In this document: in pieces, positions 2,987-27,934 of the stretch
How the letters are laid out: each line of letters opens with the position of its first letter
How positions within the stretch are numbered: the stretch's first letter is position 1
Source: a virus
Reading direction: 5' to 3' (one strand)
IMG/VR virus record: IMGVR_UViG_3300010373_000039
Span: 1-64,000 of that record
DNA length: 64,000 nucleotides
Position numbers and translations under genes: made by a program
Notes under the pieces: model-generated
Database searches by the model: none
What the model saw: only the letters and a program-made list of their open reading frames with translations
What the model was told of the DNA's origin: nothing

Positions 2987-3367
2987 ATGTGCGCAAAAGA
3001 GGAAACAGCATCGGACCCCAAACCGGCACCACAGCCGATTCCCAATGACGCGAAGAAATTCGTCTCCGACGTGATCGAACGGTTCTACAAATCGTGCCGC
3101 GAAAAATCGACCGCGTTATCCGTCAACGAGATCCAATTCGATTTGATCCTGTTTCATTTTACGAAAACGGAAATGGAATTGGGCAAAATCGCCCAATTGA
3201 TAGGAATCGACCGCGCGCACCTCGATGAGTTGGTCGGTTTCATGTTTCAATCCCGTGGGTCCGTCCTTCGGTGTTACCAAACGGTTAAGGAAAACCACCA
3301 CGTCACCGATGCCCAATTGGAATCGGTTATTTCCGAGGTTATGGAGAAGGTTATCAAGGATACGTGA
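2987..3367 (+). CDS. hypothetical protein
   Basis: AAGGAG RBS, tight packing. Confidence 0.7.
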   Translation: MCAKEETASDPKPAPQPIPNDAKKFVSDVIERFYKSCREKSTALSVNEIQFDLILFHFTKTEMELGKIAQLIGIDRAHLDELVGFMFQSRGSVLRCYQTVKENHHVTDAQLESVISEVMEKVIKDT

Positions 3368-3371
3368 ACCC

Positions 3372-3986
3372 ATGACGTTTGAAAAAACCGCCGCGATCGT
3401 CGCCCAAAAACTCATGGAAGGGTTAAAGGATTTTCCGTGGGTGACCGAAACCCCGGAAACGTATTTGACGTTCACCGATTTATTCACGATCAACATCTAC
3501 CCCAAACGGGTGATCGGGGACCGCCAATGGATGGAATCGCTGGATCGGGCAACGGCTAAAATCGTCGCGGCGGTTCAAGAATATGCCTCGGTCCATAAAA
3601 ATATCCTCATGGTGGCACCGCCGAGAACTCCATTAGGTCTTGGCGTTAAAATGACGCAAATCGGTGGACCGTATGGGACCGTCGAGTATCGATTTGATTA
3701 TGTTGCACACGAACGGCTTCCACGATGTTGGGTTGGTTTTGTACTGGGCCATATCATACCGCCCGCACGGCCCACACCGGAGATGATCGACAAAATTCTC
3801 AAAAACCTGTTGCGGGACCATCGGGCGATCATCCAACACCGTTGCCGGGAATTTGAAAACAACCCCCATCCCGGCAAGGATAAAACCATGTGTCCGGTGT
3901 TGTCCGGCGATGGTCCGTGCGATAAATGTGAGGAGCGATCGTTGTATGTCCGGCTAAACCATCTTTTGGATTTGATCGAGGGATAA
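3372..3986 (+). CDS. hypothetical protein with C-terminal Cys/His cluster
   Basis: Start chosen at ATG 3372, just after the upstream stop. Confidence 0.65.
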   Translation: MTFEKTAAIVAQKLMEGLKDFPWVTETPETYLTFTDLFTINIYPKRVIGDRQWMESLDRATAKIVAAVQEYASVHKNILMVAPPRTPLGLGVKMTQIGGPYGTVEYRFDYVAHERLPRCWVGFVLGHIIPPARPTPEMIDKILKNLLRDHRAIIQHRCREFENNPHPGKDKTMCPVLSGDGPCDKCEERSLYVRLNHLLDLIEG

Positions 3987-3988
3987 TC

Positions 3989-4192
3989 ATGGGACGCCGG
4001 ATGCCACCCGATTTTCAAAAGCGGATCAGCGAGGGGATGAAACGGTATTGGCAGCGCCGCAAGGAAAATGAAAAATACTGCCACGCGCAACACAACGATG
4101 GGGAATGTGATTGGGCGAAATGTCCCAATCCGTCGAGGGATATTTTGGTGGGGCGATGCCCGTTGCCGCGACGGGAACGTTACGAATGTTGA
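3989..4192 (+). CDS. small Cys-rich protein with NUMOD3-like basic N-terminus
   Basis: KRISEGMKRYW segment; CHAQHNDGECDWAKCP...CPL. Confidence 0.6.
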   Translation: MGRRMPPDFQKRISEGMKRYWQRRKENEKYCHAQHNDGECDWAKCPNPSRDILVGRCPLPRRERYEC

Positions 4193-4203
4193 AGGAATTT
4201 CGG

Positions 4204-4581
4204 ATGTCATTTACGTTCCATTTTGAGAAAGGCGTTCCCACTTGGACAAGGAATTTTGTCCAATCGGTTTGCCGTAAAATGGAATCGATAACCGATATCC
4301 GTCACGATGTTTTGGTTTACGTGGTTCCATCCACCGCCGTTACCTTCAACAACACCGGATGTGGGTTTGGTTGTTTCACCCATCGGGTTAAGGGAAAACC
4401 CGCAATTATCCTGGCCGGACGCCGGTTACCGGAAATACCCGTTGCGGAGTGGGTGGACCATCTAACCGACACGATCATTCATGAGATTGTTCACTACGAG
4501 CAATTCCGTGATGAAAAACCAATCACCGAACGCGGCGTGGCCGTTCGCATCAAAAATCTTATTAGGATTGCAAACCAATGA
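4204..4581 (+). CDS. zincin-like metallopeptidase domain protein
   Basis: HExxH motif (IIHEIVHYEQ); AAGGA RBS. Confidence 0.6.
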   Translation: MSFTFHFEKGVPTWTRNFVQSVCRKMESITDIRHDVLVYVVPSTAVTFNNTGCGFGCFTHRVKGKPAIILAGRRLPEIPVAEWVDHLTDTIIHEIVHYEQFRDEKPITERGVAVRIKNLIRIANQ

Positions 4582-23003: not shown

Positions 23004-23741
23004 ATGAGCACAAAGTTTGCCCATAGCGGGGATTTGGGAGATATTATCTACGCAATGCCCGCGATCCGGGCATCGGGTGGCGGTTCCCTTCAATTGTGGA
23101 ATAACCAGGGTGTCACCACCCATGCCATGACCCCCCAACGGGTGTCAATCATCTACGATTTTTTGATTTCCCAGGACTACATCACGGCGGTTGAATTCGG
23201 CCCCCGGGCCAACCATCCCCTCAACAATTTCCGTGCGTTCAACAACGGTCGTCGCAATTTGGTGGACATGCATTTGGCCGCAATGGGGTTGCCGGTGGCC
23301 GAGCGGCGTTTCCCGTGGATTAAGATCGACGAGCCCCGTCGCGTGGCCGAGGTCATCATCTGGCGAACCCCACGATGGCACAGTTTTGAATTCCCGTGGG
23401 ATCATATTTGGGAACGGTTCGGCAAATTGTCGATTGGTTTCATTGGCTATCCCGACGAACACAAAGAATTTGTCCGGAGAACCGGACACAGGGTCGATCA
23501 CATCCCAACGGCTAATTTGTACGAGGCGGCGAGGGTCATTGCCGGCAGTACCGTTTGTGTTGGCAATCAAACATGTCTTGCCGCAATCGCCCACGGTTTG
23601 CGACACCCCATGATTTTGGAGATTTGTGGTCACGAACCCGTGGCCGTTTTTCAGTACGATGGTTTGTTCAATGCATATGATGCCGACTTTACACTTCCAA
23701 CCTTAACCAAGGAAAAACATGCGCGCGTTTCTAGTGTATGA
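23004..23741 (+). CDS. GT9/heptosyltransferase-like glycosyltransferase (GT-B)
   Basis: GDLGDII.AMPAIR N-terminus; NLYEAARVIAGS..CVGNQT...AIAHGL. Confidence 0.75.
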   Translation: MSTKFAHSGDLGDIIYAMPAIRASGGGSLQLWNNQGVTTHAMTPQRVSIIYDFLISQDYITAVEFGPRANHPLNNFRAFNNGRRNLVDMHLAAMGLPVAERRFPWIKIDEPRRVAEVIIWRTPRWHSFEFPWDHIWERFGKLSIGFIGYPDEHKEFVRRTGHRVDHIPTANLYEAARVIAGSTVCVGNQTCLAAIAHGLRHPMILEICGHEPVAVFQYDGLFNAYDADFTLPTLTKEKHARVSSV

Positions 23742-24789
23742 TGGTGGCGATTCGGTCTACGTTCCGCCGACGATGGGAACCCCCCGTGCCGATCAAATGC
23801 ACGGAACGCCGGGCGAGCAATTGGTCGAAATCTCCGGGCGCGTGTGCTATGACTCGCTGGGCACCGGCCGCAACACCCCCGAGTACCATAAACACCTTTT
23901 AGGTGTTAAACACTATTCGGTGCATGAGCACGTACATTTCACGGTCGAGGTCCAAGATTGGATGGACCCAACCCCGTGGATTGGTATTCCGGATGTGGTG
24001 TTCCGACCCATGCGTTCCGTCGCCCGTAACCGATTTACCTTCAATCTTCGTCACGCTTTGGAGTGGCCTACCCAACTTCCGCCGAATCTTTACAACGAAC
24101 GTGTTATCAAGGATTGGGGGCGCATTCTACAATGGGCGGCGCATGGGGTGGTGCCCAATTTGGTTCCCACGCCGGAAACGCGAATGCCACCGTCGTTGGA
24201 AATGCGTTTGGTGCGGCCCGAAACCGACCGGGAATGCTTCGTGTCACTGTTCCTTGAGGATTCGTTGGTGTGGTCGCACGAGCAGGTACGACACCGTTTC
24301 AACATGTCCCAACGATCCGGACGGTTCTGCGATCAAACCGACCGCGAATACGCCATACATCCCTTGTTGAAAAAATACCTCAACGAGGCCGGGTACATGG
24401 CATTGAACCCGGAGGACGGCGAGCAATTGTTCATGCAACCGACCGTCAACGATGCCGCCATACACGCCCGGACCCGGTTGGGCAATGACATCGGGTCGTT
24501 AATAACCCAAACCAAAATGGTCTACGAGGCCACGGTGGACGCGCTGCAAAAATACATCGGCGAAACCATGTCGGTGGATGCGACCACGGCCCGCAAACAG
24601 GCACGATCGGCCGGACGCTATTACCTTGGCCAGGGACTTTCCACCGAAATGATTTTCACGGCATCGGTCGCGTCGTGGCGGGGCATCTTTGAAAAACGGG
24701 TCAATCCGGCCGCCGACGCCGCGATTCACGAATTGATGTCGCAGGCTAAGGATTGTGTGTTAAAATCCCGTTACGGCCAATTGTTCTAA
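23719..24789 (+). CDS. thyX: flavin-dependent thymidylate synthase
   Basis: GRVCYDS, HYSVHEH, EQVRHR...SQRSGRF, ARKQAR..GRY.L, R...AAD.AI. Confidence 0.88.
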   Translation: MRAFLVYDGGDSVYVPPTMGTPRADQMHGTPGEQLVEISGRVCYDSLGTGRNTPEYHKHLLGVKHYSVHEHVHFTVEVQDWMDPTPWIGIPDVVFRPMRSVARNRFTFNLRHALEWPTQLPPNLYNERVIKDWGRILQWAAHGVVPNLVPTPETRMPPSLEMRLVRPETDRECFVSLFLEDSLVWSHEQVRHRFNMSQRSGRFCDQTDREYAIHPLLKKYLNEAGYMALNPEDGEQLFMQPTVNDAAIHARTRLGNDIGSLITQTKMVYEATVDALQKYIGETMSVDATTARKQARSAGRYYLGQGLSTEMIFTASVASWRGIFEKRVNPAADAAIHELMSQAKDCVLKSRYGQLF

Positions 24790-24799
24790 GCGAGGGAAC

Positions 24800-25123
24800 G
24801 TGCATTTCAATCAAGCCATGGACGCGGTTGTGGACGAATACACGTCGGACGCCGATTTGGATCGGCTATGGGTATTCTTGGGTTCGTACAAATTGGCGAT
24901 GCGCAAACTGTACTACGAACAACGACCCAAAATGAAATGGCGACCGCTGGTCCCCATCTTTCGCAAGGTGAACAAGAAAATCGATTTGATTTGGGACGAG
25001 ATGCTTAAACGGCAATTTTGCCCGTCCTACTACCGTTACCGTTATCGCGAAGGTTTACAACGTCCGGAGTGGATTCCGGAACGAAACTTCCTTCGCCACG
25101 AGATCCCCTCGGCGTTCGATTAA
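24800..25123 (+). CDS. hypothetical protein
   Basis: GAGGG RBS, GTG start. Confidence 0.6.
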   Translation: MHFNQAMDAVVDEYTSDADLDRLWVFLGSYKLAMRKLYYEQRPKMKWRPLVPIFRKVNKKIDLIWDEMLKRQFCPSYYRYRYREGLQRPEWIPERNFLRHEIPSAFD

Positions 25124-25136
25124 AAATTTCATTTCC

Positions 25137-25169
25137 TACGTTGCACGTATATTTTCTTGTGGTATATAT
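25137..25169 (+). promoter_or_regulatory. TACGTTG-class promoter (capsid operon)
   Basis: TACG-TTGCAC, 16 nt, TATATAT; intergenic. Confidence 0.65.
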
Positions 25170-25181
25170 CCCATCTCGTGA

Positions 25182-25364
25182 AGATGATTTCGGTGGCTAT
25201 GCCGATCATCTAACCACCAGAAACTGAGTCCCGACAGAATCCGTGGGCGGCGCTCATGGATTGCCTATAGACGGCGTTTGTAGGCAGCTCTCCGGCGGAG
25301 GGCCAAGAGGATCACTGGTTGCACCAGCGTTTCATTTGGTCCCTTTCCGAAATGGAGATCTGTC
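25182..25364 (+). ncRNA. structured 5' leader with tandem C-GGC-G triloop hairpins
   Basis: Hairpins 25238-25262, 25263-25285 and 25287-25303 all have GGC loops closed by C-G; GACAGA 25233-25238 can pair with TCTGTC 25359-25364. Confidence 0.65.
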
Positions 25365-25883
25365 ATGGCTGCGGCCAAGTGCTACCTCGAACGAAGGCAA
25401 AAAGGCTGCTTGCCCATCCTTTGCGGTGGTGGCAGGCACTTTTTGATGCCTTTGGGTCGCGGGCACTTTGCCAAGGTTGATGTCGCCGATTTCAAAATCG
25501 TGCGGTACATGCCCTGGCGTTCATCCCCCCAAACCAACGGCGTTTATGTTTTCGGACAAAACGCGCCGCTTCACCGGTTTTTGATGAATCCGGGCAAAGA
25601 TTTTGAGGTGGACCATAAAAACGGCGACCCGCTTGACAACCGCCGTTCAAATCTTCGAGTAGTTTCCCACGCGGTCAATCAGCAGAATCAACGTGTACGT
25701 CGGAATAGCAAAACCGGCGTCCGAGGCGTTTCGTTTGAACGCCAAACGAATAAGTACAAAGCCTCCTTCAAAGTTGGGAATCGTGTAGTCACATTAGGTC
25801 GGTTCGTCAATTTGGCGGATGCCGCCGAGGCCCGTCGCGAAGCCGAGCTAAAGTTTTGGAACAGGACATATGCGGTTCGCTAG
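25365..25883 (+). CDS. HNH homing endonuclease with AP2 DNA-binding domain
   Basis: LHRFLM, VDHKNGDPLDNRRSNLR, SKTGVRGV, LGRF...AAEARREAE. Confidence 0.9.
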   Translation: MAAAKCYLERRQKGCLPILCGGGRHFLMPLGRGHFAKVDVADFKIVRYMPWRSSPQTNGVYVFGQNAPLHRFLMNPGKDFEVDHKNGDPLDNRRSNLRVVSHAVNQQNQRVRRNSKTGVRGVSFERQTNKYKASFKVGNRVVTLGRFVNLADAAEARREAELKFWNRTYAVR

Positions 25884-25925
25884 GTAAAACTGGCTGGACC
25901 GGTTTTGAAAGGTAAGGGTATCTAT

Positions 25926-27074
25926 ATCGCTAACATTTTAACCGCCGTTACCCCCAAACTGCTCGCCCAGGGCCTTCTAGCGCTTCGCCAGGTTGCGATC
26001 ATGCCGCAATTGGTGAACCAGGGCTATTCCCAGCTTGCCGGCGAACGCGGATCGTCGATTGACGTTCCGATTCCCTCCGCAATCACGGCGCAGGCCGTGG
26101 CCCCCGGCAATACGCCGCCCTCGACCGCCGATGTGCAGCCCACGTCGGTGAGTATCGCGCTCAACAACTGGTACGAAGCCCCGTTCTATTTGACCGATCA
26201 GGACATGATGACCGCCATGGAGGGAACCATCCCCATGCAGGCATCGGAAGCGATCAAATCGCTGGCCGTCCAGGTCAACAGCGACATTTTCTCGCTATAC
26301 AAGAACATCTATGGTTTTTCGGGCACCCCCGGCACTACGCCGTTCGCGTCCAACACCACGGATGTCACCACGACCCGTAAGATTTTGAACACCCAGCTCG
26401 CGCCGATTTCCGACCGCCGGTTTATGCTGGACCCCAGCGCTGAGGCCAACGCGCTGTCGCTCGCCGCGTTCCAGGCCTATCTTAACACCGACGACACCGG
26501 TGTTATCAAGGACGGTAACCTGGGCCGCAAACTGGGATTTGATTTCTACATGTCCCAGCTCGTTCCGACCCACACGGCCGGCTCGATCACCACGGGACTG
26601 ACCGCCAAGGCATCGACGGTCCAGGCGGTGGGCACCACGGCTATCGTTTGCACGACCGCCGCCTCTACCGGCGCCTGTGCGCTGGTTATCGGCGACATCA
26701 TCACGTTCGCCGGCGATACCCAAACCTACGTCGTGACGGCGGCGGCAACGCAGGCATCGGCCGCAACCGATGTGACGGTGAACATCTCCCCGGGTAAGAA
26801 GGTTGCCCTGGCCGGTGGTGAGGCCGTTACGCTCAAGGCATCGCACACCGTCAACCTCGCGTTCCATCGTGACGCGTTCGCATTTGCGACCCGTCCGCTG
26901 ACACAGGCGGCTGAGGGATTGGGCAACATCATTCAGAGCGCCGTGGACCCGGTTTCGGGCCTTAGCCTCCGGTTGGAAATCAGCCGCGAACACAAGCGGA
27001 CCCGATTCAGCTACGATATCCTTTACGGTATGCAATGCATCCGTAAGGAATTGGCGGCGCGATTGGCCGGATAA
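25926..27074 (+). CDS. major capsid protein (P22 coat-like); probable ATC start
   Basis: (M)ANILT..LLAQGL.ALR, NLAFHRDAFAFATRPL, DILYG; AAGGG RBS 7 nt before ATC; strong terminator after it. Confidence 0.9.
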   Translation: MANILTAVTPKLLAQGLLALRQVAIMPQLVNQGYSQLAGERGSSIDVPIPSAITAQAVAPGNTPPSTADVQPTSVSIALNNWYEAPFYLTDQDMMTAMEGTIPMQASEAIKSLAVQVNSDIFSLYKNIYGFSGTPGTTPFASNTTDVTTTRKILNTQLAPISDRRFMLDPSAEANALSLAAFQAYLNTDDTGVIKDGNLGRKLGFDFYMSQLVPTHTAGSITTGLTAKASTVQAVGTTAIVCTTAASTGACALVIGDIITFAGDTQTYVVTAAATQASAATDVTVNISPGKKVALAGGEAVTLKASHTVNLAFHRDAFAFATRPLTQAAEGLGNIIQSAVDPVSGLSLRLEISREHKRTRFSYDILYGMQCIRKELAARLAG

Positions 27075-27113
27075 TTCCCCGACCAACCAACAATTTTCTG
27101 CACTCAAGGAGCG

Positions 27114-27154
27114 GCGACCCCAAGGGAATTTTAGGAAACCCTTGGGGTCGTTTT
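27114..27154 (+). terminator. Rho-independent terminator
   Basis: GCGACCCCAAGGG/CCCTTGGGGTCGT stem followed by TTT. Confidence 0.85.
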
Positions 27155-27187
27155 GATAAACACAAACCCTTTTCAAGGAGTCCGTCA

Positions 27188-27934
27188 ATGCCCCCGATTT
27201 TTAGCCAGAAGTCCTCGATCGTCAGTTTGGTGTTGATCGGTGTCGGTATTTATTGCCACATTAAGGGCACGACCCTTTCCAGCGCCAACGAAAACATGAT
27301 TACACAGGCCATTGGATTGATCTTCGACATCTTGGCCGGCAACATTGCGTATTTCGTCAGCCTTCACAATAAAAACAAGAGCGCGATCAACCAACACGCC
27401 GACGTGATTAACCAATCCACGGCGACGGCATCCAACCCCGGTCCGTCCACAACGGCCACCGTTTTGAAGCTTTTGTTTATCGGCGGCATGGCGGCGGCGA
27501 TGACCGGTTGCCTGGGTGGATGCGCCCAATTCAATCAAATGTCCGACCAGGACAAAGTATCACAGGCGGAAACGGTATTCACTACCGCCGTAACGGCCCT
27601 TAGTGCCGCCAAAACGGCCAACCTGATCGATGCTCAGGATTACCACACCATCGTGGGGATCGAAACAACGATAAGCGCCGCGTTTGACACGGTCCACGCG
27701 GACCTGGACGCCGGCGGAAAACTGGACGGCAATACCGCATGGTCGGTGCTTAACACCACTCTGCAGCAATTAGCCGTCTTCCAATGGAGGTTTACCAATG
27801 GACGCGGCAATAATAGCGGCAATCGAGGCCCTGCCAGCCTTCCTTCAAGTAGTCGATCAACTGATTACTCAACTACAAAAGGGTGGGCAGTCATTGACTA
27901 CCGAACAACGCGATACCATCGAACAGCAGCGTAA
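27188..27934 (+). CDS. membrane protein: holin-like 2-TM N-terminus plus internal lipobox-like segment
   Basis: Two TM helices, linker, then hydrophobic helix ending TGCLGGC; AAGGAG RBS. Confidence 0.6.
   Translation: MPPIFSQKSSIVSLVLIGVGIYCHIKGTTLSSANENMITQAIGLIFDILAGNIAYFVSLHNKNKSAINQHADVINQSTATASNPGPSTTATVLKLLFIGGMAAAMTGCLGGCAQFNQMSDQDKVSQAETVFTTAVTALSAAKTANLIDAQDYHTIVGIETTISAAFDTVHADLDAGGKLDGNTAWSVLNTTLQQLAVFQWRFTNGRGNNSGNRGPASLPSSSRSTDYSTTKGWAVIDYRTTRYHRTAA

Follow-up and report, generated by a model that had tools for sequence, protein, structure and literature searches.

The major capsid gene of an uncultured tailed phage carries ATC at the position where its protein family keeps the initiator codon, and in front of it lie an HNH endonuclease gene and a structured leader. 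This arrangement is real and unusual, and is a variant of a known theme, that of free-standing endonuclease genes entangled with essential phage genes. We lean tentatively, with somewhat less than even confidence, towards AUC at position 25926 as the main capsid start. The window analysed here takes in positions 1 to 64,000 of an IMG/VR virus record of 97,455 bp, whose completeness is estimated at 83%, and all claims about the combination of ATC and HNH gene refer to this single genome, a metagenome-assembled record. The codon actually used, the coupling between HNH and capsid translation, and any link of ATC to cleavage immunity are the parts that we infer. The features of the locus are as follows.

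25170..25364, + strand: structured 5′ leader, a multi-hairpin domain closed by GACAGA (~25233-38) pairing with TCTGTC (25359-64)
25288..25293, + strand: CUCUCC anti-Shine-Dalgarno (anti-SD) segment, pairing with the HNH SD in the MFE structure
25354..25357, + strand: GGAG Shine-Dalgarno (SD) of the HNH gene, 7 nt before ATG GCT at 25365; anti-SD duplex −6.4 kcal/mol
25365..25883, + strand: free-standing HNH_3 endonuclease gene, 172 aa, with its TAG stop at 25881-83; Cys-rich at the N-terminus, with a weak AP2-like domain at the C-terminus
25885..25907, + strand: small hairpin beginning 2 nt after the HNH stop, with TTG in its 3′ strand
25905..25907, + strand: TTG, the sole canonical start in frame ahead of the conserved capsid N-terminus; would add MKGKGIY (7 aa)
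25913..25918, + strand: TAAGGG Shine-Dalgarno-like site, 7-8 nt before ATC; duplex energy −6.8 kcal/mol
25926..25928, + strand: ATC at the conserved initiator position, placed by the sequence, the homologue N-termini and phrog_283; predicted unpaired probability 0.91
25926..27074, + strand: major capsid protein gene (P22 coat/HK97 fold; PF11651, phrog_283), 382 codons from ATC or 389 from TTG

The capsid gene and its start position

The open reading frame at 25905-27074 belongs to the P22 coat family, giving a full-length profile match to PF11651 above the curated cut-off (85.5 bits against 24, E 4.5e-24, profile positions 16-423 of 423). It also matches phrog_283 (major head protein) at E 2e-79, with residues 2-382 aligned to profile positions 2-383 of 385. 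Its closest relative, P0002 from Logan, is 77% identical, and the closest cultured relatives are the major capsid proteins of Vibrio phage MAR10-like siphoviruses, at 52% identity. A search at E<=1e-10 returned 2954 capsid homologues. The N-termini of the best 120 of these read (M/V)-[AS]-N-x-L-[TS], and the modal length of the 120 is 382 aa, equal to that of the window capsid counted from ATC. Residues 2-25 match P0002 at 21 of 24 positions. Since the residues of this N-terminal arm are conserved, the arm is translated, and with the HNH stop codon lying upstream, the capsid start must therefore fall within 25884-25928.

At the conserved (M)-[AS]-N-x-L-T position the window has ATC in place of a canonical initiator. 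AAGGG at 25914-18 is followed after 7 nt by ATC GCT AAC ATT TTA ACC from 25926, exactly as the first-pass annotation had read these letters, and in the phrog_283 match residue 2 of the protein aligns with profile position 2, so that ATC takes the place of the family start. That annotation had also stated that the capsid ORF offers no suitable ATG or GTG. The statement holds upstream of the conserved N-terminus but not downstream, where an in-frame ATG exists at 26001; we rejected this implausible start, which would delete 25 conserved residues of the N-arm.

Start codons and gene neighbourhoods were compared in ~230 capsid loci fetched from viral, metagenome and genome collections. The capsids of these relatives, drawn from viral, metagenome and genome contig scans, are at most 68% identical to that of the window. 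The comparison with HNH-minus relatives that the first-pass annotation had proposed gave ATG at the family start in 167 loci, GTG in 48 and TTG in 2, and ATC, ATT or ATA in none of the ~230. The start codon of the relatives is almost always preceded by a GGAG(G) site. The ATC of the window is a true outlier and not chance variation.

Three capsid lineages, comprising P0033 and P0038 (Logan) and P0037/P0213 (JGI), have neither Met nor Val at the family start. Their N-termini (RFGDN[ST]LADL... and ...ARANSNTLT) are called with extensions of 14-18 aa. To judge from P0033, P0037 and P0038, N-terminal extensions seem to be tolerated in the P22-type capsid family.

In the database entry of the window capsid (P0001), the gene caller picked TTG 25905. 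Energy models nevertheless predict a better ribosome-binding context for ATC than for TTG. The SD energy for ATC (−6.8 kcal/mol) lies in the top 5% of random positions and beats the median gene start of the genome, whereas that for TTG (−3.3 kcal/mol) is equalled by 36% of random positions. TTG has a predicted unpaired probability of 0.11-0.32. The UAAGGG site is itself predicted to be largely paired with the downstream coding sequence, with an unpaired probability of 0.17. The centroid structure of the 25884-25931 fold, which holds the hairpin at 25885-25907, reaches −8.4 kcal/mol, and the hairpin alone is not significant (z −0.9). A hairpin right behind an upstream stop codon is a classical set-up for translational coupling, and coupling to HNH termination could feed either ATC or TTG. 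The most abundant protein of the phage has to be started from a poor signal.

The endonuclease gene and its leader

The upstream ORF is a member of the HNH_3 family (PF13392; 37.4 bits against a cut-off of 24.8, E 2e-9) and matches phrog_99 at E 8e-35. Its DH...N...N motif is intact; across an alignment of 15 sequences D83, H84, N92, N96 and N105 never vary, with D83, H84, N96 and N105 as the catalytic residues. The AP2 profile (PF00847) aligns over positions 1-53 of 54, but its score of 17.4 bits (E 0.0056) stays below the cut-off of 33.3; several homologues carry a precomputed PF00847 annotation. Residues 1-27 (MAAAKCYLERRQKGCLPILCGG..., window 25365-25445) are Cys-rich, with no Pfam match, and may form a small zinc-binding module. 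P0122 retains this segment, and other homologues have loose counterparts of it (CKCNCG, CSKTCG).

P0122, encoded on a 1521-nt Logan contig, is the only close relative of the HNH protein; it is 72% identical, also 172 aa long, and begins MAAAKCY. No partial capsid protein with an odd N-terminus was found among those possibly derived from the P0122 contig. The HNH family as a whole was found in 1335 phage records. In this genome the gene is single-copy, and its GC content of 0.530 matches that of the genome (0.539); it is therefore not a fresh import. In the ~230 fetched loci, no HNH_3 relative lies closer than 3-4 kb to the capsid gene, and the fetched relatives show no DNA similarity to the window's leader, HNH gene or spacer. 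Such sporadic presence is the distribution expected of a free-standing homing-endonuclease gene. In agreement with the first-pass annotation, the HNH gene looks like a sporadic free-standing insertion of the homing-endonuclease type.

The neighbours of the capsid gene within 23719-27934 are a long ThyX gene and ORFs of 107 aa and 248 aa with unknown function. No gene next to it in this interval can be recognised as a scaffold gene, and none of the flanking genes is common to any fetched relative, so that synteny is absent. The window contains 24 matches to the T4-type late promoter TATAAATA, no more than the 24 expected, and a sigma-70 promoter scan gave nothing convincing upstream.

The HNH gene opens with GGAG, seven nucleotides and ATG GCT straight after the leader, at the coordinates that had been reported for it. 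The leader had been described as structured, and the fold predicted for 25170-25380 bears this out, with a ΔG of −90.9 kcal/mol and a z of −4.72; none of 200 shuffled sequences is as stable. In this fold the HNH SD GGAG is fully paired, with a predicted unpaired probability of 0.00, and its pairing with the anti-SD spans internal hairpins. Structured leaders of 200-300 nt are frequent in front of capsid genes of the P22-type family. They also precede the capsid genes of L208 and L153, whose capsids are 68% identical to that of the window, and there an ACCUCC segment 105-130 nt upstream is predicted to pair with the capsid SD. The two leaders lie at L153:700-950 and L208:2840-3060, and the capsid SD is predicted to be hidden in this way in L231 and L101 too. 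Across 155 non-redundant loci, the mean predicted unpaired probability of the capsid SD is 0.31, compared with 0.42 for shuffled leaders, and it falls below 0.2 in 32% of loci versus 4% with shuffled leaders (p 3e-9). These predictions suggest that SD-hiding leaders may be a conserved translational control of capsid synthesis in the P22-type family.

The leader of the window hides the HNH SD as the leaders of its relatives hide the capsid SD, which supports the proposal, made in the first-pass annotation, that the HNH gene took over the capsid leader and its ribosome-binding site. The predicted anti-SD/SD design of the closest relatives' capsid leaders is matched, although no sequence homology between the window leader and the relatives' leaders is detectable. 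Homing-endonuclease genes, too, typically conceal their own ribosome-binding site within a hairpin (PMC2988022). Because of this, and because the leaders are without sequence homology, the support for a takeover is not conclusive.

Routes to capsid initiation

In the mechanism that we propose, a free-standing HNH_3/AP2-type homing-endonuclease gene would have come to lie behind the structured leader of the capsid message, ahead of the capsid coding sequence. Leader, anti-SD, SD and start codon form a unit that drives the capsid gene in the closest relatives and would here drive the HNH gene. The capsid would have lost its family initiator (ATG or GTG to ATC) with the N-arm intact. The main start would then be the near-cognate AUC at 25926, read as fMet and using the UAAGGG SD 7-8 nt upstream, and its product would be a normal M-A-N-I-L-T protein. 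Ribosomes ending HNH translation at UAG 25881-83, 42 nt upstream, could feed this AUC by termination-reinitiation. A fuller version, in which the HNH gene captured the capsid initiation unit, the capsid depends on an AUC fed by HNH-terminating ribosomes, the HNH gene is hard to delete and the change of ATG to ATC gives immunity to cleavage, is improbable as a whole. Deletion would be hard in that version because only one exact 561-nt deletion restores ATG GCT AAC.

The ATC start, the TTG start and a sequence error are inseparable in silico. For ATC speak the outlier codon, seen in one of ~230 loci and one of 120 proteins, the stronger SD (−6.8 versus −3.3 kcal/mol), the more accessible codon (predicted unpaired 0.91 versus 0.11-0.32) and the HNH gene found only here. 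AUC does initiate in E. coli, and the product has an N-terminal Met, but at ~1-2% of AUG initiation (range 0.02-3%), compared with 10-100% for UUG (bioRxiv 10.1101/063800). Such a yield is very low for the most abundant virion protein, a canonical UUG stands in frame 21 nt upstream, the UAAGGG SD is predicted to be mostly paired (0.17), and coupling would yield at least as much endonuclease as capsid protein. It is quite possible, if on the doubtful side, that the capsid starts at TTG 25905 with the MKGKGIY extension and that ATC simply encodes an internal Ile. No other canonical start stands in frame upstream of the conserved N-terminus, the gene caller chose TTG, and UUG initiates far better than AUC in the measurements just cited. 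The proteins P0033, P0037 and P0038 lack Met at the canonical position and carry extensions of 14-18 aa. The hairpin directly behind the HNH stop fits classical coupling; a ribosome terminating at UAG 25881-83 would open the TTG hairpin, so that this start, too, may be coupled to the HNH gene. Against it, the SD of TTG is no better than random sequence and the codon is predicted to be paired, and chance alone would place a TTG, GTG or ATG in frame within 14 codons in about one case out of two. The MKGKGIY extension is seen in no relative and adds two Lys to an otherwise strictly conserved N-arm. ATC would be a non-functional state if base 25928 were wrong in the consensus or assembly, or if the contig represented a variant that is defective or has arisen very recently; this we consider unlikely. 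The record is a single metagenome assembly of estimated 83% completeness, ATC is one base from ATG, and a scan of this kind selects for oddities, but consensus errors are rare and a 97-kb contig implies an abundant population. Moreover, the oddity coincides exactly with the sole HNH insertion in ~230 loci, which suggests a biological link, and the genome-like GC of the HNH gene shows that it did not arrive recently.

The geometry of the insertion is a separate matter from the start codon. Deletion of 25371-25931 (561 nt, 187 codons) would give ATG GCT AAC, as the first-pass annotation had noted and the sequence confirms. Its further claim, that the insertion lies exactly at the start codon, is not supported; it rests on a 3-nt GCT match, and more widely the HNH and capsid initiation regions resemble each other no more than chance would allow (p 0.04-0.12, post hoc). 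A duplicated initiation region was rejected, this resemblance not being significant. P0122 also begins MAAAKCY, so that the "MA" may belong to the HNH protein itself. The HNH gene may instead have inserted intergenically, ahead of the SD that belongs to the capsid (TAAGGG...), with a leader of its own that it either brought along or acquired; ATG GCT would then be a coincidence and ATC an independent point change. We credit this tenable reading, which concerns geometry only and is compatible with either start codon, with somewhat less than an even chance. It draws on the shared beginning of P0122 (72% identical, 172 aa), on the counterparts of the Cys-rich N-terminus in homologues, on the chance-level resemblance of the initiation regions and on the sequestered ribosome-binding sites typical of homing-endonuclease genes (PMC2988022). 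Its weak points are that the leader architecture matches the relatives' capsid leaders, that a leader owned by the HNH gene would leave the capsid without a long leader, unlike L208 and L153, and that P0122 may share a single insertion event with the window HNH gene. A normal start could also be restored after transcription, by a self-splicing intron removing the HNH region, by a ribosomal hop from GCU 25368 to GCU 25929, or by read-through of UAG to yield an HNH-capsid fusion. The 561 nt are a multiple of three, the HNH and capsid ORFs share one reading frame with a single TAG and 14 open codons between them, and group I introns do invade the P22-type capsid family (L197). A shared frame has a one-in-three chance, though, and no Rfam family, RF00028 included, has a hit at E<=10 in 24700-26300, leader included; the intron of L197, by contrast, scores 97.7 bits in that search. 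Junctions compatible with the GCT repeat yield G...G or U...U and never an exon-terminal U together with an intron-terminal G, as group I splicing would need, and only ~126 nt of the 561-nt segment are non-ORF. Splicing is unlikely. Known hops span ~50 nt. The 97-kb genome has zero tRNA genes and hence no suppressor tRNA, and TAG ends many of its long ORFs as a common stop, so that the phage shows neither the TAG avoidance nor the suppressor tRNA of a TAG-recoded one. On the Rfam, tRNA and stop-usage data we rejected group I and group II introns, hopping, an intein-like insertion and TAG read-through or recoding at this locus, and we regard restoration by splicing or decoding as highly improbable.

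Known systems and meaning

In T4-like phages it is established that free-standing endonuclease genes borrow host expression signals and hide their own ribosome-binding sites in hairpins (PMC2988022). The window resembles T4-like seg/mob and Aeh1 mobE in having a sporadic nuclease gene wedged beside a conserved essential gene. As in the T4-like cases, it would be a promoter-less cassette on host signals with its ribosome-binding site in a stable RNA structure, and the entangled signals of the downstream essential gene would make deletion costly (PMC2988022). It differs in that the downstream essential gene has lost the canonical codon at its conserved start position, and in its nuclease family, which is HNH_3/AP2-like as opposed to T4 Seg (GIY-YIG) or Mob, with the nuclease role read from sequence alone.

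Natural near-cognate AUU starts are known in bacteria from infC and pcnB (bioRxiv 10.1101/063800), which share with the window an AUH codon at the conserved initiator position behind a normal SD. Unlike the window gene, infC and pcnB encode low-abundance regulatory proteins, whose initiation is meant to be weak and IF3-sensitive, whereas a major capsid protein needs very high output, and its use of AUC is putative. The Vibrio phage MAR10-like capsids align with the window capsid over the full length at 52% identity, the match beginning at query residue 1, the ATC position, but they have ordinary starts and no upstream endonuclease gene in the loci examined.

A second mobile element in a P22-type capsid gene was observed in L197 (JASJEK010000278.1), a Xenococcaceae cyanobacterium MAG contig. 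An ORF-less group I intron at 3525-3732 (RF00028, 97.7 bits, E 4e-26, full-length model) splits the capsid gene at about residue 177 into same-frame ORFs at 3001-3543 and 3781-4377. Like the window, L197 has a mobile element interrupting the gene, but there it is a ribozyme inside the coding region, whereas the window has a protein-coding HNH gene in front and no ribozyme signal.

If the AUC start is true, the locus would offer one of the rare natural examples in which a near-cognate start serves a very highly expressed protein, and would show a selfish nuclease gene rewiring the expression of an essential host gene and so becoming costly to lose. If TTG is the true start, the conclusion would be more modest: gene callers would have picked the correct codon on the wrong grounds, and the capsid family would tolerate short N-terminal extensions. 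With either start, the pair of ATG-type and ATC-type alleles is suited to testing target-site immunity of an HNH_3/AP2 endonuclease.
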